Below are positions 1 to 32,000 of a DNA stretch of 32,000 bases, piece by piece. Both the position numbers and the translations under genes were made by a program. Every line of letters starts with the position of its first letter. The first letter of the stretch is position 1. The stretch is from the NCBI GenBank assembly GCA_004563595.2, contig CP042461.1, positions 1,290,001 to 1,322,000 on the forward strand, written 5' to 3'. The notes beneath the pieces were generated by a model. It did not search any database. It was not told the origin of the DNA and saw nothing but the letters and a program-made list of their open reading frames with translations. This DNA comes from Candidatus Saccharimonadota bacterium (GTDB lineage Bacteria; Patescibacteriota; Gracilibacteria; BD1-5; UBA6164).

Positions 1-1214
1 ATAAGGTATTTTGCTATATTTGAAAATATCAGAGAAAATATAAGGGAAAATATAAGCTCTATTGGAAAGTTAATAATTAAATTTGTAGTATGAATGACAA
101 TAAAAGGAAATATTATTATAAAAAGAGAAAAAACTGCAATATTACTCAAAATAAGTATATATCATGAGCGACTTAAATTAAAATATACTGAAACAATAAT
201 AAGTAAAAATATCAAAACCCATTCTAGTTTTGTATCAAAATATCTTAAATAATTTTTATTCAATATGGTATTAATCATATTCACATGAGTATAAACTCAA
301 TAATCAATACCATTAGGAGTGTAAAATACATCTTTTATTCAAGTAGCTGTTGCTCAAATCAAAATAATTTTATCTTTAAAATCAATATGGTTTTTAAGTT
401 CTTCAAATTTTTTTGAGTCATATACATCTATAAATGACACTGTTTTTTTCTCTTTTTGAAAATCAGAATATTTTATATAATTTATAAGGATTTCCTTTTC
501 TCAACTTCTTGCAAGTGGTATCTTTTTATTAGGTATGAGGTGATAAAAATTATCATCAACAAATGACTCTTTTGTAATAAAGTCTCTTTTATAAAATAAT
601 GAATAATATGTTTTTAATACTGCGAGACTAAAGTGGTCAAAATATTCTCATTTTTTTGTTTTGGTAAAAGGTGTAATTCAGTATACCACATGATTTACAT
701 CATCAATATCGGGACTATAGTAACCCGTCGCTTTAATAACATCCGAAAAAATAGATTTTTGAAAGATTCAGTTTTTCGAAAAATATGATCATATCAATAT
801 ATTTCATGCCTGTTGTATAGATGCTCTAAACGCGGTATCTGATTCCTTTTTAAGAGACTCTTCTGCAAAAATAATATCAAACGCTATCAGAGTAGCTCAC
901 GCATCATTTAAATGCTCTATAACAGGAATATAGGCCTTTCTATCAAAAGGGAACCTTCAAAGCTTTATATTACTATTATTTCCTTGTTCTAATGTCTTAT
1001 CATCAATCTCGACTATTAAAATATTATCGTTTATTTTTGATTGTTTGGCTTTATTTTTGATTGTATAATATGTATTTTGAATTTTTTTATCTAAAATATA
1101 AAATACTCAGGTTGAGCTCAAGATCACAACAAGTATCAGTATTATCAAGGATAATCATACTGATAAGATATTTTTTCATTCTAATGAAAAAATGTTTTTT
1201 ATATTAAAATGCAT
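1..1214 (-). CDS. CHASE2-domain membrane sensor protein, N-terminal part (effector domain lies beyond window start)
   Basis: ATG at 1212-1214. The frame is open to position 1 when TGA=Gly (all codons checked, no TAA/TAG). Translation: MHFNIKNIFSLEGKNILSVGLSLIILILVVIL (N-terminal TM) ... ILIVEIDDKTL..KLGRFPFDRKAYIPVIEHLNDAGATLIAFDIIFAEES...ILIGATATGIKDVFYTPNG..., followed by C-terminal TM helices. This is the typical CHASE2 layout. Confidence 0.8.
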
Positions 1215-1224
1215 TAAAACAAAA

Positions 1225-2475
1225 TTATTTATTAATCAAAGAGTCCAACACTCAGTGTATTACCTTATCCGTATTATTTTTAATAGAATTATATCTACTC
1301 TTAATATCATCAACTGATATATTTTTAAATTTTGTAAGATCGACGCTTTGCCCAAATATATTTTTTAGACTCTCCAGGTTATTTAGCATAATTTGTTTCA
1401 GATCATCTGGAAGAATGTTAAAGTCAAAATAATCAGAAAATTTAATATCTAATTCCTTTAATATGTCGCTATGATTTTTCAAAATAGGAAGTATAGAATC
1501 TAGGTGATTAAAGTTTTTAGATTGAATAGTTTCCTTAAAGTCAAACATAATACTTTGAATGAGTACTTTTTTATTATCGTTTGATGCTGTAGCAAGTAAT
1601 ACTTCTTTTAATTTAATCTTATTGAGAAATAACATTCAATCATCTGAAGATTTTATAAAATTAATTTTTTGGTATTCAATAAGAAGTTTGTTATAGAGTT
1701 CTTGTTTTTCACTCTCTGACATTGTTCATATCAATTTTTCTAAATCTTCAGATTGTATAACTTCATCAAATTTCTTTAATATAATATTCTCTTTAAATTT
1801 CTCTAAAGCTTCTTGTTTTAATATCTCTAGGTACTCGGTATCATATTTATCATTTAAAGCTTCCCAAGCTTGATTTTTTATATCTCTAATAAACTTTTCA
1901 AGTTGTATAAAAGAAAATGTTTTTAATGAAAAAGGGTCTCTTTCTCAAATAATAAAAGACTTGTCATTTGTTGTAAGTGTAACTTCATGGTCTAAAACAT
2001 ATATATATTCATTTTCTAAGTCAACATCAAAAACTGTTCCTCTCACTGAGGCTTCGCTATCCATAAAGTATTCTTTGAAATATGAATCCTCTCAAAAGAA
2101 ACTTATAACATTTGACCAACTTTTTCATGATAATAATTCAAATGATATATTCATCATTGATAAATCATGTGTAATAAAAAGTTCTTTTATCTCAATAGTA
2201 CTATTTCAACCAAGTCTTGTCAGACTCCCATCTCACCATTCAATTATAACTAAACTATTATCTCCCTGAGTTGAGATAATATCTCAAATATATAAATTTT
2301 CTCTTTTCTCTACTTCTAATACTTGCTCATTTAGTAACCCAGCTCCTTCAATAAGTAATACAAATGAGTCTCTATCTGAATTTTTGAATAAATATGAGCT
2401 ATATAATCAAGCACCAATTACTCATAATATTAACAAAATAATAAAAGTAATAAATTTATTTTTCATTTTCTTCAT
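1225..2475 (-). CDS. FecR-domain protein (signal-anchor, 416 aa)
   Basis: ATG at 2473-2475, TAA at 1225-1227. The track ORF 1252-1635 is only its C-terminal fragment. N-terminal TM MKKMKNKFITFIILLILGVIGAG, then a FecR-like beta segment GDIISTQGDNSLVIIEWGDGSLTRLGGNSTIEIKEL. Frame verified free of TAA/TAG. Confidence 0.75.
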
Positions 2476-2542
2476 TCTTGGGTATTATAAAACTGATAAA
2501 ATTTATGTCTATTATATAAATAATAAATAATTTTCAAAAGAT

Positions 2543-2947
2543 ATGAAAAAACAATATATTTTCCTTATTATGATTGCTATAATTTTATACATATTATACT
2601 TGATTGGTACTTTTACATATAAAGAATATAAAATTAACTGAAGTATAGAATATATATCAAAGCTAAATATTGAAATTAAAGAAAGAAATAAATTAGCACT
2701 TGAGATTATTGAGTACAAAAAATCAAAGGCATACAGAAATATGATCCTAAAGCAGCAGCTTTCATTCAAGAACAAATGAGAAAAAGTTGTATACCTTACA
2801 AGTGAACAAAAATACAATAAATATGTAAATGAGGTTCTCCCTGAGGAAATAGATAGTCTTGAGACCAATATAGAAGATAATATTGTAAATGGGATGACTA
2901 TATTTGAAAAATGGATTTACTTTTTATTTAAAATAGATACTCGATAA
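2543..2947 (+). CDS. small bitopic membrane protein, FtsB/DivIC (septum formation initiator)-like
   Basis: ATG at 2543, TAA at 2945-2947, two in-frame TGA. MKKQYIFLIMIAIILYILYLIG (TM), then coiled coil KLNIEIKERNKLALEIIEYKKSKAYRNMILKQQLSFKNKGEKVVYL, which resembles the FtsB/DivIC C-terminal motif. The functional call is tentative. Confidence 0.5.
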
Positions 2948-2950
2948 TAA

Positions 2951-2980
2951 AAAACACCTGAATAGATCAGGTGTTTTTTT
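2951..2980. terminator. bidirectional rho-independent terminator
   Basis: aaaaCACCTGAatagaTCAGGTGttttttt. 7-bp GC-containing stem flanked by an A-run and a T-run. It sits between convergent genes and overlaps the stop codon of the minus-strand gene (2979-2981). Confidence 0.7.
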
Positions 2981-3413
2981 ATAAGTCAGAAAAATCTGCG
3001 GGGATATCATCTAAATCATTGAGATCTAGGTTTCATGGATCATAACTGGTTTTATTTCCAAATATTTTATTTCCAAGTTCTTCAATTTTTTCAAAAATCC
3101 TTTTTGGTTCAGCATACTTTTCTACATCTAAACCTAATAATCTTCCAAATATCGGAAATACAAATATTGTTAACACTGTTATAATAATACCTACTATAGC
3201 ATACCTAATAGTATTGATTGCTGGTTTTATTTTATCATCTTTTCACCCTGACAAGATAAGTAAAAGCCCTCACCATAAAATAAAAACTATTGAGAAAATT
3301 CCAGCAGCTAATACAAAAAGAGAAATAGCTAAAAGAATAAAGTCACCAAACTCAATCTGATCTCAAAATATAGATCATGTTTGATTTACGGCGTGAACAG
3401 TTTCTATAAACAT
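2979..3413 (-). CDS. small two-TM protein resembling CPR TrbC/VirB2-type (T4SS) pilin-like proteins
   Basis: ATG at 3411-3413, TAA at 2979-2981, 144 aa with several TGA=Gly. ...FILLAISLFVLAAGIFSIVFILWGGLLLILSGGKDDKIKPAINTIRYAIVGIIITVLTIFVFPIF... The TM / GG..SGG / KxxK / TM pattern is typical of the pilin-like family. Acidic C-terminal tail. Confidence 0.5.
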
Positions 3414-4848: not shown

Positions 4849-6039
4849 TTATGCTTTAATTTTAGCAACAACTCCTGAACCAACAGTTCTACCTCCTTCT
4901 CTTATTGCAAATTTTAGACCTTCAGTCATCGCAATAGGTTGTTGTAATTTAACTGTGAAATCAATATTATCACCAGGCATAACCATTTCAACTCCAGCAG
5001 GTAATTCAATATCACCAGTTACATCAGTAGTTCTGAAGTAGAATTGAGGTTTATAACCTTTGAAGAAAGGAGTATGTCTCCCACCTTCATCTTTTGAAAG
5101 TACATATACTGTTGCTTCAAATTCAGTATGTGGAGTAATTGATCCTGGTTTAGCAAGAACTTGTCCTCTTTCAATATCTTCTCTATCTATACCTCTTAGT
5201 AAGATACCAGCATTATCACCAGCTTGACCTTGATCTAATAGTTTATGGAACATTTCAACTCCAGTAACTGTAGATTTAACAGTGTCTTTGATACCAACGA
5301 TTTCAATTTCTTCACCTACTTTAACGATACCAGTTTCAATTTTACCAGTAACAACAGTACCTCTCCCTTTAATTGAGAATACATCTTCAATAGGCATAAG
5401 GAAATCTTTATCAGTTGGTCTGTCAGGAACAGGAACAAATTCTTCAATTGCGTCAAATAATTCAACGATTGATTTTGCACCGTATTCTTTATCCATATCA
5501 GCTGGATTTTCAAGAGCAACAAGTCCAGAACCTTTGATAACTGGAGTGTCATCACCTGGGAAGTCATATTTAGTTAATAAGTCTCTGATTTCCATTTCTA
5601 CTAATTCAAGCATTTCTTCATCATCAACCATATCACATTTATTCATATAAACAACGATGTAAGGTACACCTACTTGTCTAGATAATAATATATGTTCTCT
5701 TGTTTGTGCCATAGGCCCATCAGTAGCAGCAACAATTAAGATTGCAGCATCCATTTGAGCAGCACCAGTAATCATGTTTTTTACATAATCGGCATGACCA
5801 GGACAATCCACGTGAGCGTAATGTCTGCTAGCTGTTTCGTATTCAACATGTGAAGTATTAATAGTAATACCTCTTGCTCTTTCTTCAGGAGCGTTATCTA
5901 TAGAAGCGAAATCTCTTACTTCACCACCTCCAAGAGTAGTTAATACAGCAGAGATACCTGCAGTAGTAGTAGTTTTACCATGATCAACGTGACCAATAGT
6001 ACCAATATTCATATGTGGTTTAGATCTATCAAAAGCCAT
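4849..6039 (-). CDS. tuf: elongation factor Tu
   Basis: Intact 396-aa ORF with [17 protein letters not shown] and NKCD motifs. No TGA codon in the whole gene. Confidence 0.99.
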
Positions 6040-6577: not shown

Positions 6578-6682
6578 AGATAATTATGAGCAATTATCAA
6601 AAGGAAATACAGAGGCAAATTATTTAAAATTTGTTTTCAACTCTCTATTCGTTAAGCAATATTTGCTGTGCATCTTATATAA

Positions 6683-6761
6683 TGGCGGGAGCGACGGGAC
6701 TCGAACCCGCGACCTCTTGCGTGACAGGCAGGCGCTCTAACCAAAGCTGAGCTACGCCCCC
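6683..6761 (-). tRNA. tRNA-Asp (anticodon GUC), CCA encoded
   Basis: Reverse complement GGGGGCGTAGCTCAGCTTTGGTTAGAGCGCCTGCCTGTCACGCAAGAGGTCGCGGGTTCGAGTCCCGTCGCTCCCGCCA. The anticodon and T arms nearly match E. coli tRNA-Asp. There is one C:A mismatch in the anticodon stem. Confidence 0.85.
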
Positions 6762-6780
6762 ATTTGTAAATGCGTGCCGA

Positions 6781-6808
6781 ATTATATGAATAATTATATC
6801 TAATGCAA
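6781..6808 (-). promoter_or_regulatory. putative sigma70-type promoter for the tRNA-Asp/tRNA-Ala (possibly tuf) transcript
   Basis: On the minus strand: TTGCAT, 16 nt, TATAAT. The -10 element ends about 20 nt upstream of the tRNA-Asp 5' end. Confidence 0.35.
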
Positions 6809-6895
6809 ATGTTTTTTTAAGTTTTTTTGTAAAAAATAGAAAAATAGCTTATACCGATACTTTTAAAGAAGTACATCATCTCTGCATAGGGTGAT

Positions 6896-7777
6896 TTATT
6901 TTAAATACTTTCTTGATGAAAGAAACCCACTCAATCCTCATACAAACACAAAGACTAACATTTCAATCAAGAATGTATTGTATGAAAAATCAAAAAAGTA
7001 TATATCTGAAAATGCAGCATTTATATTTTGTAATATAAAGACAAATATAATAAGGCTGAGAAGAAATGAAACAAAGGAATAAAAACTTCACTGTAAAACA
7101 AATGGACCATAAATAAATTTTTTACTTCATCATACTAATCTTGTGATATATATTTCATCTTTATAGTAATAGATAAAATTTCCAATAATAGAATACGTGA
7201 TTACAAATATAGAAAGCAAAAATGTTATAATAATTATGTATAAACCTATACTTAATATATCAAGTACGTGAATCACTTGATTTATTTTTTTGTACTGAGT
7301 TGTATAATTTGAAAAATGCTCTATATCAGATTCATCTTTTGATAGTATATATAATTTATTTTCAATAAAGCTATTCATTTCTTCATACTCTTCTAGCTGA
7401 ATCTGAGAAAGAATGATCGTATCGGGAAGGGGATTTGTCCTCTCAAGTATTTTTGCTAAATCTGGTTCTTTCAAACGTATGTCCTCTAGAATTACCTCCT
7501 TTGTTTTATATTCAACCTTTATTTTTCATCAGATTTTCTTGATATCTTCTATAAGTCAAATTACTTCTGTTGAACCTTTATCATATTCTTCATCTAAATA
7601 AAGTGAAATAGTAAGCTTTGAATTAATCGAGCTTATTAATTTAAAACTTACATCATGAAGAAGAATAAGGATGTTTATGAAGAACATAAGGAGTGTGAGA
7701 ACCAGAACAGATGAAAAACTCAGAAATTTATTTCTGAATATATTTTTGATAGAATATTTTGCGATACGAAATAGCAT
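6896..7777 (-). CDS. ftsX: cell division permease-like protein FtsX
   Basis: Track ORFs 7556-7777 and 7130-7474 are joined, and the frame extended to the TAA at 6896-6898, by reading TGA as Gly. MLFRIAKYSIKNIFRNKFLSFSSVLVLTLLMFF...KDEIYITRLVGGSKKFIYGPFVLQGSFYSF...VGGLSGFLSSRKYLK. This is the classic FtsX topology and motif. No ftsE is adjacent. Confidence 0.85.
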
Positions 7778-10189: not shown

Positions 10190-10363
10190 GCGTAATAATT
10201 AAAATATACTATTATTATAACTGTATCATAGTCTTAATTATATTGCAAAATATTAAAAATACTGGGCCTATAAGTATTATTTAGTAATTGTCAATTTATA
10301 AATTTGAAATTACAGATATATATATGATATACTAACTAGGAATTTAAAAATTAATGCAAAATT

Positions 10364-13300
10364 ATGGCAGGTAGTACAGAAAATAATAACTATAGTTCTC
10401 TCGTTCAATCTATTGAACAAGCGACAAAGAATAAAAGTACTCTTGATGATGTAACTATACAAGTAGCTGAGGAGGCTCTTTTAAACACTGATATTGATGC
10501 AGGTCAAAAAGAGAAACTTTCATGATTATTAAATGAGTATAAAGCTCTTATTCAACAAACTCACACAGAAGTTGCTCAAACTCAAATTGATGTAGAAAAA
10601 AATCCTGATCAAATAATTACAGAATTAGTTGATGTAATAAAGTCAAAAAATATTTGAAAATTCACTGAGTCATTTTCTAAGTCTGTAATCAAACAACTTG
10701 ATTTTTCTGAAGAAAAACATCCTGAAAAATATACAAAAATGCTTTTATTATTAGCTGAAATAAGCAATATCTATGATAAACCTGAATCTACTCAAAATAC
10801 AGATTTAGAATGAGTGCTTAAGTCTGAATGAAAAAAACTTCAAATTATTATCACCGAAGCAAGCTTAGATTTAGAGAACAATACTCTTGAGAAAAATTTA
10901 GACTCGTATCATCAAGCAAAAACTTCAACAGTTCAAAAAATGATTTTGGATTATATTCATGAAACTGAAATTAAGAATAAAGGGTATACTATTAGGCATG
11001 ATGTAGATAATAGTTTCTTAGTAGTTAATAGGGATAATAGACAAATTCGTACTAATGCAATAACAACTATCCAAGATCAAGTTTCATCTCAAGAAATGAA
11101 AGATTACGTAGCTTTCCAAAAAACTGATGAGTATGAACTCATGAATTCTGTTCCTGTATTATGAGATTCAACTGTAAAGGATATTATAAGACAGGCTTCT
11201 GGTGAGACTCAAAAGGAAATAAAAAAATTTACTGAAACAACATGATTTAAAATGTTACTTCCATTAGCTGCTCTTGCATTTATATTTTGAATAGTTGGAG
11301 GCAAAATGAGTTTTTGAAAAAGGTTGTTAGTATTACTAGGATGAGGAGCTGCCTTATTTGCAGGAAATATTAGTGCGCAAGAAATGTGACATGGGAGTTT
11401 ATTTACACTTGTAAAGAATGGAATTAATGAAGCTACTGACGGTTTAGTAAAAACAGACGATTGGAAGCAAAAAACACGTCCTATGAATGTGTTTAATGAA
11501 ATTGAATTCCTCAATGATAATGCTGAATATCAACTCGGCAACAATATTCTTACATGATTATTTACAAACATATATTCAAATGATCATTTTAAAAATACAC
11601 ATATATCAGTAATTGAAAGATTTATTACAAACAAATGAGCTGTTGCAAAAGATGTTTTTGGGGAACCTCTTCCTAAAAAAGAAAATTGAAGCGATTATAC
11701 TACTGGAGAATTACAACAATTCCTGAGACTCACATTGTGAGCAAAGGATAGTGCCGATACTTATGGAGACCACTTATTACAAAGACGTGGCCATATTCCT
11801 GGAACATCTCCTCAAAGATCTCAAGAGCCTCATTCACTTATTCCTGGAACCGATCTTGAAAATACTCAAGAAGCTCGTTCACTTATTCCTGGAACTGATC
11901 TTGAAAATACTCAAGAAGCTCGTTCACTTATTCCTGGAACTGATCTTGAAAATACTCAAGAAGCTCGTTCACTTATTCCTGGAACTGATCTTGAAAATAC
12001 TCAAGAAGCTCGTTCACTTATTCCTGGAACTATTACGGCTGAAGAATTAGAAAACAATGAAATAATTCGTTATCAAACTATTTGATATTTTGAAAATGGT
12101 ACTCAGTATTTATTCTGAGAAGATGGAACAGATACGGCTCTTGATTATGACAGCCTTTCACCAAATTTTAAAGAAGCTTTCGACAATTATTATGGAGTTT
12201 CAGAACAAGCTGAAAATCTCTTATTTATATTAAATACGATTGGTTGAAAAACTGAAGAAATAGATACCCTTAATCAATCGCTTAATCAGGTCCATATATA
12301 TAAACTTGATGAAACTATACCACAACTCCAAACAACTATACAAAATATCGTTTGAGCACTTCCATGATCACTCGGTGATGTATCTGATAGAGTGGGTATT
12401 TTAGAATATCTCCGTGAAGAAGGACTTTACGATGCTGTTAGCAGAGAAATAGTTGAAAAGAATTTTGATGAAATAGTAAATCTTTCTGAAGAAGATTTAC
12501 AAAATTTTATCGAAAATGGGACTACAAACAACAAAATAGATCAACTAAAAAGAGAAGATTCTGATTTATATAATAAAGTAGTAGAAAAGAAAAATGAAAT
12601 AGAAGAATACATAGCAGAGTTTAGATCTGAAATTCTCTCACAACCAGAGTATGAATGACTTGATCAAAACGCTATCCTAAAATCAACAAAAAATATTTTC
12701 TTAACATGATTTACAAAACATTTATTATTTACCACTCAACGTGAATCAGAAATGGGGGTATTTGACGTAAATCAACAAGGATCAGCTGAGTTAAAACTTT
12801 TTTGAGAGATGGAATGAGTATGACTCTTAGATATCAGTGATAAAAACATAGATTTTTGGTGAAAAGAAGCTCTCATTATGGTATGAACTCAAGCTATTGC
12901 TATTGGAATATGAGCTCTTACTATGTGAGCCTGAACTATTGCAGTAAATGCTCTTGTACATGGAACAAGGTGAGTAAGAGGATTAAAACAGATGAGTAAT
13001 ATTTGAAAAATTGCAAATGGGACAATAAAATGATCATGAATAATGCCATGAACATGAGTTACAGCCGCTAAATTAGCAAGATGAGTTAGTACATGAGCAT
13101 TAGGATGAGTATCTTTTAATGCTTGATATACTCTTGTAAATAGTGGGTTTGCATGAGAAAACCTATATTCAAAAGAATGATTTATGGATGCTGCAAAATT
13201 TTGAATAGCATTAAAGTGATTTGAAGCATTTAAAAATATATATAGAGGTGTTGCATGAGTCTCAACAAAGTGAAACATACTAAAAGAAAGTTCTAAATTT

Positions 13301-13804
13301 GTTGTGAAACATGGGGTAAACATATGAGTTCCCGTTGCTATTGCGATGTGATTAGATTGATGAAAGTGAGCTCTTGATATAAGCTTTGATGAATGAGAAT
13401 GGACCTCAGAAGAAGTACTTCAAGCAATGACGATAGTTGCTAGTTATGCTCTCATTAGAAAATATGGATCAAAAGATATAGCATCAGCAAAAAAGTGATG
13501 AGAACAAGTTTGAGAGTTTGCAAGGGCAAATAGTGGGAAGGTTTGAGAGTTTGTAAAAAACTCATGAGAAACAATTCTTGGTACATGAAAAATTATCGGT
13601 TGAGTAATAAAAGTAAAAATGTGAAAAAAAGGAGTTGAAGTTCAACAAGGAACAAAAACCATGAAGGAAACATATAAAGATCTGAAACCAGGTCAAACAG
13701 CGAAAATGAATAATTGAATTAAAGTGAGAAAAAAAACTACCACACAAGTCATAAAAGATAAAATTCCAAAAGGACCTACTCTAAATAAACCTGGAATTCA
13801 ATAA
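10364..13804 (+). CDS. very large hypothetical protein (1146 aa) with central TM hairpin, 15-aa tandem repeats and a Gly(TGA)-rich hydrophobic C-terminal region
   Basis: ATG at 10364, TAA at 13802-13804. The frame was checked line by line with no TAA/TAG. It joins track ORFs 10940-11164 and 12392-12658. Starts MAGSTENNNYSSLVQSIEQ. TM region TTGFKMLLPLAALAFIFGIVGG...LLVLLGGGAALFAG. No family recognised. Confidence 0.85.
11834..12031 (+). repeat. 45-bp in-frame tandem repeat, about 4.4 copies
   Basis: Unit TCACTTATTCCTGGAACTGATCTTGAAAATACTCAAGAAGCTCGT at 11834, 11879, 11924 and 11969, plus a partial copy at 12014-12031. Copies 2-4 are identical and copy 1 differs by 1 nt. Encodes (SLIPGTDLENTQEAR)n. 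Confidence 0.95.
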
Positions 13805-13840
13805 ACAAAAGAATGTCAAGTATTTGACATTCTTTTGTTT
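13803..13840 (+). terminator. rho-independent terminator, 17-bp perfect stem
   Basis: AAACAAAAGAATGTCAAgtatTTGACATTCTTTTGTTT, immediately after the stop of the 1146-aa gene. Confidence 0.75.
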
Positions 13841-13928
13841 ATTTGGTATGATATATATACTGAGTATTATCGGTTATTAATTGTTTACACAAATAATCCC
13901 GATAATCTCGGGAAAAGGAGAATTTATT

Positions 13929-14387
13929 ATGAGTAATTCATTAGATGGTTTCACTGATCAAATAGTAGAAACTTTTTCGAAGATAACATTGATAAAAGCT
14001 GTTACATTTGTAGTATTTTTAATACTTACAAAAATCAATGCATTTTCTGATATACCTCTTCCTATTTACGTTGTAGCTGGAGGTATTGCCGCATTACTTG
14101 CATTCAAAAATGAAAAAGCTTATGGATGGGGAGTTGCAACATATATTGTTACACTCTTATGCATAATGCCCTATATAAATGAATGGAGTATTGCAATTAT
14201 TGCAACTGGTCTAGTAATGGCAGTTTCAATATGTGGAATCTATGCTATTCGGCAAAAAGCCGTCTATCTTGGAATTGTATCTGCATTTATACTCGCTTGT
14301 TCCATCAATCAAGTGTCTCAATTCACACTTGAGCAGATAAATGATGTCAACATCGAAAATTTTGATCACAGAAACCGAGGTATCTAA
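13929..14387 (+). CDS. hypothetical 4-TM membrane protein (152 aa), TGA-free, preceded by a Shine-Dalgarno motif
   Basis: ATG at 13929 preceded by AGGAG (13916-13920) with an 8-nt spacer. TAA stop at 14385-14387. MSNSLDGFTDQIVETFSKITLIKAVTFVVFLILTK... All 9 Gly are GGN. The track starts this ORF at a TTG (13881), which I consider less likely. Confidence 0.75.
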   Translation: MSNSLDGFTDQIVETFSKITLIKAVTFVVFLILTKINAFSDIPLPIYVVAGGIAALLAFKNEKAYGWGVATYIVTLLCIMPYINEWSIAIIATGLVMAVSICGIYAIRQKAVYLGIVSAFILACSINQVSQFTLEQINDVNIENFDHRNRGI

Positions 14388-14395
14388 GTTACTCA

Positions 14396-14427
14396 AAAAG
14401 AAAAAACCGAGCTATGCTCGGTTTTTT
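14396..14427. terminator. bidirectional rho-independent terminator between convergent membrane-protein genes
   Basis: aaaaaaaaaaaCCGAGCtatGCTCGGtttttt. Confidence 0.75.
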
Positions 14428-14435
14428 GTTGTATA

Positions 14436-15017
14436 TTACCCTCTTCTGATTGTATCCATTTGAAAGAGCTTATTCATAGCTCCGGTTAATGAAACATCAA
14501 AATCATCTTGGGCAATAGCTTCAGCATATTTCGTCATTTCAATTACCAAATAGTTACAAGGTAATAATAAGAGAAAAGCGTTCACTATAGCAGGTAAATC
14601 AGTAAATAACGTCAAAGTAAGTATTATCATCATCACAATAATTGAGAAGATAAAACATGCTTGAGCCCATACTACAATTATTGCTGTTAATTTAATATAA
14701 TCTTTATCCTCACGAATATCTACAGAGAATTCATCAATAGTTTCTGGTTCATATGCCCCTTTCGACACCATTTGATTCACAGTTGCATTTGCTGCATTTG
14801 CTTGACTGACAAGATACAATCGCAAAACTACCAATGCAACAACATAGCAGATAAAAACAAGGAACATAGCAATATTTGAAAACGATAAAATCATCATAAT
14901 CAAAACGGATACAAACCCCGCAACTACAGGAAATCTGGCTAATTTCAAGGTAAACCACACAAAGTATCGTGGTGAATTTAAATCAGAAACTACCTTTTGT
15001 CCAAATAACTCACTCAT
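14436..15017 (-). CDS. hypothetical multi-TM membrane protein (193 aa), TGA-free, SD-like motif upstream
   Basis: Intact track ORF with a TAA stop. Upstream on the minus strand: AAAGGAataaaatATG. MSELFGQKVVSDLNSPRYFVWFTLKLARFPVVAGFVSVLIMMILSF... All 5 Gly are GGN. No family recognised. Confidence 0.75.
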   Translation of the reverse strand: MSELFGQKVVSDLNSPRYFVWFTLKLARFPVVAGFVSVLIMMILSFSNIAMFLVFICYVVALVVLRLYLVSQANAANATVNQMVSKGAYEPETIDEFSVDIREDKDYIKLTAIIVVWAQACFIFSIIVMMIILTLTLFTDLPAIVNAFLLLLPCNYLVIEMTKYAEAIAQDDFDVSLTGAMNKLFQMDTIRRG

Positions 15018-15196
15018 ATTTTATTCCTTTAGCATATAGCTAATGTTGTAAATTTAGTATTCAAAGAAAATAAAGTAAATATAGCTTACCACTAAATAGT
15101 TAATTGTCAATATATATTTATTTTTTTTCTCTCTCATTTTTCGTCAAAATCTCTTTTTTATGGTAAAATAAAGGAAATATAAATAATAAAACACAT

Positions 15197-26064: not shown

Positions 26065-26196
26065 TACACAATTTTTTAGCCAAATAGTCAACTCAATTTA
26101 AAATTTTATTCCAAATATTAATATCCTGTTAATGTCTCATATGTATACTGTTCTATGTAAAAAGGAGGAATTTTATATTTTTAAATTTATAATTTA

Positions 26197-27099
26197 ATGT
26201 GAAAGGTTATATGTTCATTATTTCTGTTTATTTTTTTGTTTTGATCAACATCTGCTTATACAGCAACTCAAAACGATAAAGATACTGTGGATGTTCTTAC
26301 GTCTAAAATAAATAAAATAATAGAAAAAAAATGAGAAAAACTACGTACGATTTTTATAAAAAAATTATCTACACTAAAACATAAAATCAAAAAAAATGAG
26401 AAAATTACTTACATTATTTGAGAATTAGTAAACAACTTGAACAACTCTACTCAAGCCATTGAAGACTTGATTAAAGAAGTAGAGAATCACAGTAATAATA
26501 CTAATAAAAACAGCGATAAATTATCATCTTTATTATTACTACAAGAATATGGTTCAATGTATAATAAATTGATTGACAACGATATATATTGAAAAAATTG
26601 AAAATTTGATTTAGGATGTTGAAACTATGCAATTAAATGGAATGAAATATATAAAGATCAATTTCAAAATATATATAACAAATCAAATCTTATAAATAAT
26701 ATTTTTCTAATGGATTTAATGAAATATGATATTGAAAAATTCAACAAATATTTTAAAAAAACATGTAAAAATGATGCAAAAATTGATTCCATGCTGTTTA
26801 CTACAACAAGTATCTCCCGTAACCTAGATAGCTTTGATAATTCCTACTATACAGAAATATATATATTTTATAATAATTGGTACAATACACTATATAAATA
26901 TCTGAAGGATTCTAAACCATGAGAAACTTGTAATACAGTCTGGGAAGATTGGGATGGATTTACTTATGACAAAATGGAGTATTTAAAAACATATACAAAA
27001 AATACCAACTCTGATATATACCTAAAATACTTCTCTGAACTTCAAGATAAATTTAGAAAAATGATGAAAGAAGAATGTAATGGTCTTAAAATAAAATAA
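26197..27099 (+). CDS. secreted hypothetical protein (300 aa), Asn/Lys/Tyr-rich with 5 Cys in the mature part
   Basis: ATG at 26197, TAA at 27097-27099, frame checked. Signal peptide MGKVICSLFLFIFLFGSTSAYTATQ. Contains track ORF 26710-26922. No family recognised. Confidence 0.7.
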
Positions 27100-28426: not shown

Positions 28427-29761
28427 TTAATAACTTTTTGATCATAAGTCTAGCTCGTCTTCCATATTAATATGAAGGTCCTCTGATCATGTAATTCATA
28501 GAATTGTATAATCTATTCATGACTTTACAAGATTTAATGTAATTACGGTACTTGAAGTTGTTCCAGCAATAACTATTTTATAGTCCTCTCCTCTTGTGGA
28601 ATTTGACAGTGTTCTATTTGTCTGTAGTAGTGCTGACATATTAAACTCTAATACATCACCACTCATGACTCATACTACTCTATTTGATGAACTTTCACTA
28701 TTATAAATAGAATAAACAACATCGGCATCTCAACTTGATCATAGCGTTGATAAGCGAAGTTTTTCAAGCTCTATAGTAGGAGAATTATTTCAATTTTCAA
28801 TAGTATTATTCCCAAACATAGCTCTGATATTCAACTCTGGAATGTTACTTGAAAGATTTTGCTCTACCTTTACTTCTAATACACCGGGAACAATAGAAAA
28901 AAGTTCTCATGGTTCAGTAACAGTATACATAGCTATATCATTTCCTGATGAGATTCCTTTTACATCATCAAATCAAACTTTACTTACATAGATATCCTTG
29001 ATAGTTTTCCCTGCTTTTTCCCTCCCTATTGGTGCTGTTTTTATCTTAAGGCGTGCTTGTCTAATATTTTGAGTGATTATAAAATCATTAAGATTATCAA
29101 AGGTAATTTTTGCTTGGGTAGAACTAATAATATCTAGCTTTGATGATCATACTGAATCTATTACACTTCATTCAAGATATAACGTAGCTGTTTCGATCGA
29201 ACTCTTTATATCTGTTAGGTCTTCTGGCCCCGAAATATAAAAGATAACTTTCCCTACGTCAGACGCTTCGTATAACGAGCTAAAGCTTTGTTTATATATA
29301 AATACTTCCTCTCAAGCTAAAAGAGTTTTCTCTTCTTCATTATAACTATCTGAGAATCCTGGATACACTGTCATTTCTTTCTCTTCTATTATTTTTTCGT
29401 CTTCAGTGATTTCATTATCTTTTATGATTATTGCTTGCTCTGATTTTAAAGCAGCTAATGTATATGAAGTTTTTAGAGTTAAATAATTGAGTATTAATTT
29501 TAATTTTTTTGATCTCACATCAGTTCTATATTTTAATTTTTTTTCAAGAGAGGTCAGTTTGTTTGTAAGAAGATTCAAAAAGATTTCATTTTCTTTCTTT
29601 TTTTCTAGAAGACTATCAATAGCTTTGATGTATTTACTTCAATTTGTAATAATTGAAAGTCTTTCTGCTGATTCAGAAATATCATTTTCTAGGTTTGCAT
29701 GTACTCAACTTTGAGAGAATACAAATAGAAAAGATAGTAACAATGTAATAATTTTTTTCAT
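28427..29761 (-). CDS. secreted hypothetical protein (444 aa)
   Basis: ATG at 29759-29761, TAA at 28427-28429, frame checked. Signal peptide MKKIITLLLSFLFVFSQSGVHA, a coiled-coil N-terminal part, then a beta-rich C-terminal part. Contains track ORF 29312-29578. Confidence 0.75.
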
Positions 29762-29828
29762 GATCATAATATTAAAAAATTAAATATAATTCTATTATAT
29801 ACAATCCTAAATTTTACACAACAAAAAA

Positions 29829-29907: not shown

Positions 29908-32000
29908 CTAGTAAGATCTAGTACCCATATCTAATTCATCAGACATATTGTTAGTTAATGAAGTAGCACCAGTATTGTCAGCAACACTGTATGTAACCCC
30001 AGTTTCTAATAATTGTAGAGATGAAGTATCACCATCTGCAGTACCAGTAATAGTGATTTTGAATGTTTCACTAGAACCAGCTGAGATTGTTTGATTTGTA
30101 TCAGTCATACCAGCAAGAGTAAATGTAACTATATCAGGACTAGTAGTAATTACTCATGTGATAGTATCACTTGAGTCATCAGTATTAGATATAGTATATA
30201 CTTCAGCACCTGCGATAGAAGTACCAAGAGTAGAGAACACTAATACGTCAACTAATGTGTTAGCAGTAGAGTTATCATTATCTTTAGTATTGTCTCCAGC
30301 AGTAGAAGTTAATTTTAATTCTGGTGTAGTACTAGAATTAAGAGAAGCTTCTACAGAAGCTGTAAGAAGAATAGGAACTATAGCAGTATCTTTAGAAGAA
30401 CTAGAGATAGCTAATGTTTCATTCGTAGCATCTTTACCAGAATCAACACCTTGAACATCATTTAATGCAATATTAGTTATGTTAATACCTGTAACTGTAG
30501 CACCATTTTTTTGGTAACCAATAGTTTCAGTATTTAATACTAATTTAAGTTCAGCAGTAGACTCTTCAACTATTAAATTATCTAAATCATCAAAAGTAAT
30601 AGTAGTAGCAGTAACATCACCGATATTATTCGTATCAATTAATGTATCATCTAAGTATAGAGATGCATTAACTATTTTTTCTGTTAAATCAGTATCAACA
30701 GTGAAAACAACAGTTTCAACATCCATAGATTCATTAATAGATTGAACATCAACTGAGAATACAGTTTCAGAAGAACCAGCTAAAATAGTTTTAGCATCTT
30801 CATTGTCTTCATTATTAGCATCAGCAGTTATAGTAAGTTCACCGAATCCAGTAATAGAGATTTGTCTATTAGAAAGGATATTAGTAGTAACAGTAACATC
30901 ATCTTTATCATCATCTTCAACACTTAAAGAAGTAAGAGTTGTTTCGATAAATCTTTGATCTACTGCATCTTGTCCATCAACGATAGAAAGAACAACAATA
31001 AATGTTTCAGTAGCGTTAGATTCTATTTTAACGTCTGTAAAGTCGTTAAATGTAACAGTACCATCAGAAGCAATTTTAGAACCAGATTCTTGGTCTAATA
31101 AATTAGCCTCAGAAACAGAACCTACGTATAATCTTGCTTCAGAGATAGTTTGACTTGGTAAGTTAGTTGAACTAAATATAAATACTTCAGCTTGAGCAGT
31201 AACAGCAACAACATTAGCAGTTGTAGCAACATTTGAACCAGCTAAATCACCAGTAGCATTAGCAGCAGAAGGGCTAGTGAAAGCAGTTCCTGCAACAGCA
31301 GCAGTTAAAACAAGATCAGCACCAGCGCTTGTTAATGTTATACCAGCTGTAGCGTAAGCAGCAGCATTAGCAGTAACAAAATTAGCTGCAGTAGTAGTAA
31401 GATCAGTAGCAAAAGTAGAAGTTAATGGACTACCTGTAACACCAGCTGTAGTAATAGCTGCAGTACCTGAAGTACCAGTAATAGTAAGAGTATCTACTTG
31501 AGCAACTGCAGTAACAGCAACAACAGCAGCAGCAGCAGTTGGGTTAATTTTAGCAATTACTTCATCAACAGTTACGTAAGAAGATTCTTCAGCTTCAACT
31601 TCCCATTGTAAAGCAACAATATCTTTTGCTCCTCTAACAACAGTAATATCAGATAAATTAACTTCAGAAGCAGTAGCTCCAGATTCAGAACCATCAATAG
31701 AGTTAAAAGAAACACTAGAAGGAGTGATATCAGTAACTTCTTTATCATCTTCAGTTTCTTCAACATAGAAAGCACCTGCAGTTAATATATTAGTATTACC
31801 AGTAACAAAAGAGATTTCAAATGAAGCACTATCAAATAAATTGATATCTTCACCAGTATCAGCTCTAATAGACCAATTAGTTGATCCTTGAGGAATAATA
31901 ACATCTATACTATCTTCAGAATAGATATCAGAACTTGTACCTCCTAATTGTAATTCATACGAAGAACCTGTTTCTTCATTATATAATTCAACATCATCAA
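29908..32000 (-). CDS. large acidic Thr/Ser/Ala-rich surface (S-layer-like) protein, C-terminal >697 aa (5' end beyond window)
   Basis: TAG at 29908-29910. The frame was checked to position 32000 with no TAA/TAG. It joins track ORFs 29908-30108 and 30154-30726 through a single TGA (30154-30156). It shows repeated beta-sandwich-like modules (e.g. TVTFNDFTDVKIESNATETFIVVLSIVDG and TITFDDLDNLIVEESTAELKLVLNTETIG) and an Ala/Thr-rich segment. Confidence 0.8.

Follow-up and report, generated by a model that had tools for sequence, protein, structure and literature searches.

Two convergent membrane protein genes that lack in-frame TGA codons and keep Shine-Dalgarno sequences across lineages of recoded Gracilibacteria

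We analyzed a stretch of 32,000 nucleotides (nt), hereafter the window (contig CP042461.1, positions 1,290,001 to 1,322,000), from the closed 1.34-Mb genome of Candidatus Gracilibacteria bacterium 28_42_T64 (Sieber et al. 2019, PMC6851277), in which two small membrane protein genes, geneA and geneB, contain no in-frame TGA and are preceded by Shine-Dalgarno (SD) sequences. The pair is specific to a clade of Gracilibacteria, in which it is old and has been passed on vertically as a module; the two genes always occur together and in convergent orientation, and purifying selection maintains both proteins and their expression signals. Open reading frame (ORF) calling with TGA as a sense codon confirmed genetic code 25 in the window, where the G+C content (GC) is 0.293 and TGA accounted for 302 of the 579 glycine codons outside the pair (52%) and for 3.5% of all codons. 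A preliminary description of this DNA had placed the genes correctly (13929 to 14387 on the plus strand and 14436 to 15017 on the minus strand), and its count of 14 glycine codons, all of them GGN, was confirmed (9 plus 5), as were the SD motifs that it gave at 8 nt (AGGAG) and 7 nt (AAGGA) from the start codons. It had read the pattern as a recent insertion from a standard-code donor, which did not hold. Its fallback idea, that the genes must remain translatable where TGA does not mean glycine, gained support: the exclusion of TGA is specific and has been kept, together with the SD sequences, across deep divergence.

At the average rate of the window, the chance of finding no TGA among 14 glycine codons was approximately 3e-5. 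We then compared 15 pair genes, representing nine independent geneB lineages and six geneA lineages, with their surroundings, and TGA occupied 2 of the 148 glycine codons in the pair family versus 522 of 1,000 in neighboring genes on the same contigs (Fisher p ~1e-39; 9 lineages). More than half of the glycine-bearing alignment columns in the family (52 of 84) were specific to one lineage, which indicates that most of the glycine codons arose independently, and 64 of the glycine codons were GGA, which one synonymous change from G to T would turn into TGA, in a genome of 29% GC. Since GGA is tolerated and TGA is not, selection appears to act against dependence on UGA decoding as such. The depletion was confined to the reading frame, with 0.7 TGA per 1,000 codons in frame versus 30 and 37 in the other two frames. 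Thus, the constraint acts on translation and not on a DNA or RNA motif, and avoidance of the trinucleotide as a motif or nuclease target was rejected because TGA is abundant out of frame. A bias of gene calling toward code 11 was likewise rejected, since gene calling on the contigs that carry the pair had read through 19 to 33 TGA codons in flanking genes, which makes any ascertainment bias small. We also rejected a general effect on membrane proteins: others in the window use TGA freely (ftsX, 7 of 13 glycine codons; a protein of 144 amino acids [aa], 5 of 14; a 180-aa protein, 5 of 10), and membrane location is therefore not the cause of the exclusion.

Both genes carry a purine-rich motif 5 to 10 nt before the start codon. 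When duplex energies with the anti-SD, inferred from the literature (PMC9297842), were calculated for 98 ORFs of at least 40 aa, geneA ranked first and geneB fifth, and all three ORFs between them were out-of-frame or antisense artifacts. An SD was present in all 15 pair genes (-5.0 to -13.1 kcal/mol), while the 34 other genes of the window and related loci were all at -1.5 kcal/mol or weaker, as the preliminary description had suspected from the start codons it inspected; the separation was complete (Mann-Whitney p = 1.6e-8). Loss of the anti-SD is described in the literature only for part of the Parcubacteria (PMC9297842). Of 14 pair genes, 13 had a perfect TTGACA -35 box upstream, versus 2 of 37 others, and the promoters of the family shared a layout of TTGACA, a spacer of 16 to 17 nt, a good -10 box, and then (a/t)tatatACT. 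Among the related loci (numbered with the prefix L), the geneA promoter scored 12/12 in L001 and L010 and 11/12 in L003 and L008, with the TTGACA and -10 boxes invariant in the lineage alignment, and the promoters of geneB orthologs scored 10 to 12 of 12. Leaders in the family were 35 to 114 nt long, often with a stem-loop just 5' of an unpaired SD.

The closest relatives of the two proteins, found in a word-indexed search of 5.8 billion proteins, were one for each (76% and 82% identity), both on L001, where the gene order is that of the window: the end of the giant gene, geneA, geneB, a 574-aa gene, and queA. A HMMER profile search of 1.84 billion representative proteins recovered a small family of full-length geneB homologs at 22 to 32% identity, and all contigs carrying them are TGA recoded. 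Over the 10.8 kb of L010, a giant gene is followed by genes for 153, 193, and 597 aa, queA, a thioredoxin-like gene, era, a 191-aa gene, and tsaB, as in the window, and the geneB homolog there is ~29% identical to geneB. In every lineage with enough sequence, a gene for a protein of 148 to 183 aa with multiple transmembrane segments converges on the geneB homolog, and positional homologs of geneA had 15 to 34% identity in L003, L005, L008, and L010. Between the window and L001, the ratio of nonsynonymous to synonymous substitution rates was 0.157 for geneA and 0.207 for geneB. The synonymous rate (dS) was 0.97 for geneA and 1.0 to 1.2 for the flanks, with a value of 0.43 for geneB that suggests an extra constraint on its nucleotide sequence. 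Conservation of the TGA-free frames and the SD sequences across these lineages shows that both are under selection.

These same-position orthologs on code 25 contigs refute a recent insertion from a standard-code bacterium or phage, although in this one window a TGA-free, SD-led, and terminator-flanked pair does look like one. The pair region was native in composition (GC, z = +0.75, with 29% of equal-sized windows as GC-rich or more; tetranucleotide distance, z = -0.09) and in codon usage. The composition was indistinguishable from that of the flanks, and the higher GC noticed in the preliminary description was correct for the raw values (0.333 and 0.335 for the genes versus 0.293) but not significant. 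The dS of geneA equals that of the flanks, no flanking direct repeats or insertion scars were found around the pair, and the genes nearby (queA, era, tsaB, ftsX, and tuf) show no mobility features. No donor emerged, either: tblastn found no homologs of the pair in phages and plasmids, scans of viral, genome, and metagenome contigs with the family alignments gave no further loci, and no relatives were found in phages, plasmids, IMG/VR, GTDB genomes, PDB, or BFVD; no homolog turned up in viral contigs or in any standard-code context. We therefore give a recent insertion next to no probability. An assembly chimera was rejected because the same arrangement occurs in independent assemblies. The pair was also considered as a prophage gene or moron, since it has its own promoters and terminator, but its flanks are housekeeping genes and phage homologs are lacking; the giant flanking proteins belong to no Pfam or PHROG family and thus provide no prophage context.

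An older origin would account for the moron-like layout (own promoter, own terminator, small membrane protein): in this view, an ancient phage moron or standard-code donor gave rise to the pair, and the hallmarks persist simply because they have not had time to decay. TGA-free phages are predicted for Gracilibacteria (PMC10746230), and interconversion of TGA and GGN is slow, with ~5 of 47 conserved glycine columns in the flanks switching class at a dS of ~1. However, the family has diverged to 15 to 25% identity and its 52 lineage-specific glycine columns are still GGN, the SD and the -35 box were conserved while the surrounding leader diverged, and in its other codons the pair is fully native. 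Searches by sequence and by structure found no phage homolog, and a recent spread of one element among the related loci is contradicted by the housekeeping gene order that they conserve. A neutral relic is thus highly improbable.

Our preferred reading, which we hold tentatively and at somewhat less than even confidence, is that the pair consists of cassettes kept independent of tRNA-Gly(UCA) and started by an SD, for times when UGA decoding is limiting, unreliable, or subverted. Each gene is a self-contained monocistronic cassette with a canonical -35/-10 promoter, a leader, a strong SD, a TGA-free frame, and the common terminator. Selection against in-frame TGA would make the synthesis of both proteins independent of decoding by tRNA-Gly(UCA), and initiation would proceed through SD/anti-SD pairing and not by the SD-less route on which the other genes of this genome rely. 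Such a design would most likely serve to secure full-length proteins at times when the decoding of UGA limits synthesis, makes errors, or has been subverted, possibly during takeover by a TGA-free, code-11-compatible phage or during starvation away from the host. Many Gracilibacteria phages are predicted to lack in-frame TGA (Liu et al. 2023, PMC10746230), which provides both a precedent and a possible antagonist.

Several points weigh against this reading. That UGA decoding becomes limited or attacked in these organisms is a hypothetical premise, and no sign of a phage factor directed against it was seen, although no search aimed at RF2 or tRNA-targeting factors was made. Ordinary translational selection can also purge TGA, as in tuf (4849 to 6039), which has none in 40 glycine codons, and the low dS of geneB would suit a highly expressed gene. 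The canonical promoter form also drives TGA-containing genes without an SD (L071, L066, and the 771-aa gene of the window); because ordinary TGA-containing genes carry it, we dropped it as a specific hallmark, and a scan with the extended promoter returned mostly unrelated AT-rich DNA, with two of three recoded matches driving ordinary TGA-containing genes. The anti-SD energies depend on the sequence taken from the literature, since the 16S rRNA gene lies outside the window and the related loci. Finally, the survey covered only ~57 kb of recoded genome sequence.

The points on tuf and dS lead to plain optimization for high expression, according to which the products are abundant membrane proteins and the promoter, leader, SD, and avoidance of TGA all maximize output, as in tuf. 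We regard this as a real possibility, if an unlikely one. In addition to tuf, the gene for a Thr/Ser-rich, surface-like protein of 272 aa (29908 to 30726; 1 of 17) and rpsJ (0 of 4) are poor in TGA, the strongest consensus promoters of the window belong to the pair, and the structured leader exposes the SD. However, other ribosomal protein genes do contain TGA (rpmB, 3 of 5; rpsP, 1 of 4), as does a KH-domain gene (4 of 6), and the native highly expressed genes (tuf, rpsJ, rpsP, rpmB, and tRNAs) lack both of these signals, the SD and the TTGACA box. The pair also showed the avoidance of TGA expected from tuf-like optimization without the shift to preferred codons: tuf and the 272-aa gene strongly prefer GGT, which made up 72 to 88% of their GGN codons (p = 0.001 versus the pair) and 26 to 47% of those in bulk genes (p = 0.74 versus the pair), while the pair used 39% GGT and 44% GGA. 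Outside glycine, the log-likelihood ratios of codon usage were -0.12 and -0.24 for the pair, as in bulk genes, versus +0.13 for tuf. Thus, tuf resembles the pair in its total lack of TGA and is otherwise its reverse, with 72% GGT, codons of the highly expressed type, no SD, and no TTGACA. From these comparisons, we infer that TGA is specifically excluded from the pair and that general codon optimization is absent.

Both genes are annotated as coding for hypothetical proteins, and they represent two new membrane protein families without detectable relatives outside recoded contigs. Their strict co-occurrence suggests joint action, and the two products probably act together, likely in one membrane complex. 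Members of the geneB family (P0002, P0005 to P0009, P0011, and P0014) share the residues D100 and D104 and a C-terminal DFxxSLxGA..DTI motif. The AlphaFold2 model of the geneB product (mean predicted local distance difference test score [pLDDT], 83.5) shows a beta-hairpin at the N terminus and four transmembrane helices, which run on into long helices, and in this model the long helices probably form a cytoplasmic bundle bearing the conserved acidic residues D100, D104, D172, and D188; the geneA model (pLDDT, 50) was too poor for use. Foldseek returned nothing significant for the geneB model (best E = 0.75 in PDB and 0.5 in BFVD), although the model bears a nonsignificant likeness to ExbB and to alpha-pore-forming toxins. 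Neither protein had a significant match in Pfam, PHROGs, NCBIfam, or PADLOC, and the PHROGs matches had E values of 0.1 or worse. A holin was rejected, since the sole match, to Phage_holin_3_6, had an E value of 2.2 and 8.8 bits versus a cutoff of 28.4 and no lysin gene lies nearby. A known defense system was also rejected, as PADLOC gave no match for the geneA and geneB products, P0007, or P0011, and the match of P0005 to GajB (E = 0.013, 12.5 bits) was nonsignificant and was treated as chance.

The small size and polytopic nature of both proteins would agree with a need for accuracy, in which UGA stalls, terminates, or misincorporates and faulty copies of small, possibly pore-like membrane proteins are poisonous. 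The specific, in-frame exclusion of TGA without general optimization fits this idea, as may the long-helix bundle of the geneB model with its faint resemblance to ExbB and pore-forming toxins. However, it leaves the conserved SD and promoter unexplained, the pore function is hypothetical, and TGA is freely used in other membrane proteins, such as ftsX; we consider this explanation rather doubtful. A further alternative is that the cassettes are built for transcription and translation in a standard-code host or prey after DNA transfer. This would account for all of the signals together (sigma-70 promoter, SD, lack of TGA, and terminator) and for their conservation in a genome that mostly does without them; Gracilibacteria are thought to be host dependent (PMC6851277, PMC11452946), and genes for a VirD4-type coupling protein and for proteins resembling type IV secretion system (T4SS) pilins lie ~15 kb away. 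In contrast, no homolog occurred in any standard-code genome, plasmid, or phage searched, the pair sits amid housekeeping genes without mobility features, most T4SS clusters of Patescibacteria have no relaxase and are thought not to serve in conjugation (PMC12102498), and the T4SS genes are themselves rich in TGA. Expression in another organism is accordingly very unlikely.

The coordinates of the genes and their signals are given in Table 1. The descending arm of the inverted repeat at 13800 to 13843 bears the -35 box of geneA, and the same TGTCA-N4-TTGACA arrangement of terminator and -35 box was found in L001, L010, and L008; the terminator between the two genes is conserved in L001. Both of these terminators are real, but the bracketing of the pair by terminators, as given in the preliminary description, fails on the right side, where the DNA from 15018 to 15196 is a divergent promoter region without a terminator. 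The sequence of the hairpin reported at 13897 to 13913 (TCCCGA/TCGGGA) exists, but the minimum free energy (MFE) fold places its 3' arm in the longer leader stem-loop, which takes in the hairpin bases. L003 (TCCGGA/CCGGA) and L005 (TGCGGA/CCGCA) also have a hairpin immediately 5' of the SD, formed by other paired bases. When the region was searched permissively against Rfam, all matches were below threshold and were taken as chance. The upstream motif shared by the two giant genes is also real (TAATTGTCAAT, at 10283 to 10294 and 15099 to 15110) and is explained as the reverse complement of the TTGACA -35 regions, TTGACAATTA, of the 771-aa gene and geneB, both divergently transcribed. The divergent intergenic region that separates geneB from the 570-aa gene contains two copies of a direct repeat, AAAATAAAG(T/G)AAATATA, at 15067 to 15083 and 15165 to 15181, 98 nt apart, the second of them just upstream of the start of the 570-aa gene.

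Table 1. Positions of the two genes and of the surrounding expression signals in the window
Feature	Position	Strand	Description
Intrinsic terminator of upstream 1146-aa gene	13800-13843	+	Perfect 20-bp inverted repeat
geneA promoter	13824-13852	+	TTGACA-17-TATGAT, extended -10 TG, 11/12 matches, then atatatACT
geneA 5' leader stem-loop	13860-13911	+	MFE -18.8 kcal/mol, z = -2.72 versus shuffles; SD left unpaired
geneA SD	13916-13920	+	AGGAG, 8 nt to ATG; anti-SD duplex -8.7 kcal/mol
geneA (A9Q91_06020)	13929-14387	+	152 aa, ~5 transmembrane helices, TGA in 0/9 Gly codons
Bidirectional intrinsic terminator, common to both genes	14401-14427		12-bp stem, T-runs on both strands
geneB (A9Q91_06025)	14436-15017	-	193 aa, 4 transmembrane helices plus long helical extensions, TGA in 0/5 Gly codons
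geneB SD	15025-15029	-	AAGGA, 7 nt to ATG; anti-SD duplex -5.6 kcal/mol
Small hairpin	15030-15042	-	UAGC-uauau-GCUA, precedes geneB SD
geneB promoter	15083-15110	-	Perfect TTGACA (15110-15105), 16-nt spacer, degenerate -10 TAAGCT, then atatttACT

Two loci elsewhere resembled the cassettes of the pair. In L003, a third gene with the same hallmarks (2425 to 3063, minus strand) lies between two giant genes and codes for a 212-aa protein that combines a transmembrane helix at the N terminus with an acidic coiled coil; none of the 4 glycine codons of this gene is TGA, its SD is TGGAGG, and its promoter matches the consensus at 12/12 positions. On L143, an unrelated TGA-recoded metagenome contig, the region from 884 to 1347 (plus strand) combines the promoter TTGACA-17-TATAAT-ATATATACT, the SD AAAGGAGGA, and a terminator with a TGA-free ORF (955 to 1347) for 130 aa with multiple transmembrane segments, which is unrelated to geneA or geneB and adjoins a gene with TGA at 8 of 12 glycine codons.

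Elsewhere in the genome, we made several observations on leaders and neighboring genes. A promoter with 11 of 12 matches, TAGACA-16-TATAAT (2484 to 2511, minus strand), ends 8 nt before the ATG of a 416-aa gene (1225 to 2475), and several other genes have -10-like boxes 7 to 30 nt from the start codon, which suggests that genes in this genome typically have a very short leader or none. The sequence AAAGGAGGAA (26155 to 26196) lies ~32 nt upstream of the ATG of a 300-aa gene (26197 to 27099), too far for a normal SD, and this gene has no alternative start in frame. The 1146-aa giant gene contains 5.3 tandem copies (11794 to 12031, 94% matches) of a 45-nt unit encoding SLIPGTDLENTQEAR. Two adjacent genes for putative surface proteins (28427 to 29767 and 29908 to 30726) encode similar C termini, ..LGSKSY and ..MGTRSY, which may be a common sorting or anchoring signal. 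A 118-aa ORF (6682 to 7038, plus strand) that overlaps tRNA-Asp (6683 to 6761, minus strand) and the end of ftsX is almost certainly spurious. Approximately 2 to 5 kb beyond the start of the window, locus L014 (17321 to 21191) of the same genome holds three TGA-rich genes with weak or faint matches to the Pfam family T4SS_pilin and a gene for a VirD4/TraG-type coupling protein (T4SS-DNA_transf, DUF8128), ~15 kb from the pair; none of these genes has an SD or a TTGACA box.

Several known systems share features with the pair. In Streptomyces, the rare TTA codon marks a few regulated genes that depend on a single tRNA, bldA. The likeness is that the presence or absence of one codon sets the dependence on one tRNA; the logic is inverse, since what the pair misses is a very common codon. 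The small polytopic membrane proteins of phage morons and of superinfection exclusion or abortive infection, such as RexB, Imm, and Sie, come from units of promoter, gene, and terminator that stand on their own between larger genes. The pair shares this layout, but the prophage context and any similarity in sequence or structure (PADLOC, PHROGs, and BFVD) are absent. Like the pair, the code-11-compatible phages predicted to infect Gracilibacteria and Absconditabacteria have no in-frame TGA and can be translated under either reading of UGA (PMC10746230); those are whole phage genomes, whereas the pair consists of native chromosomal genes in a housekeeping neighborhood without phage homologs. 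Prophages in these two groups are reported to be TGA rich (PMC10746230). Stop-recoded phages also have code-neutral gene sets, in which a subset of genes avoids the reassigned codon as the pair does (bioRxiv 10.1101/2021.08.26.457843), but there the early and the late genes differ in this respect, and the difference is linked to suppressor tRNAs and release factors of the phage, while the pair is cellular and no decoding switch is known for it. Full-text literature searches found this TGA-free phenomenon at the level of phages and no native TGA-free, SD-led genes in code 25 bacteria; codon-specific gene partitioning, code-neutral gene sets, and moron-like cassettes are already known.

Codon reassignment is usually taken to be genome-wide, and here a small native set of genes is held outside it by selection through very deep divergence, as it is held outside the SD-less translation start that is usual in this genome. 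The finding also calls for caution, since the combination of TGA-free frames and SD sequences in a recoded genome is not proof of foreign origin. It is conceivable, though we think it unlikely, that the pair belongs to a class of code-neutral host cassettes that can be translated when UGA is a stop or cannot be decoded, with the similar cassettes of L003 and L143 as further candidate members. If so, its products would be membrane effectors that can be expressed during subversion by phages, a code-based logic of defense or abortive infection, or, alternatively, would be suited to expression in a standard-code host or prey cell. Overall, the pair provides a handle on the cost and reliability of UGA-to-glycine decoding and on the use of the anti-SD in uncultivated, host-dependent Gracilibacteria, and on whether code conflict with phages or hosts shapes cellular genes.

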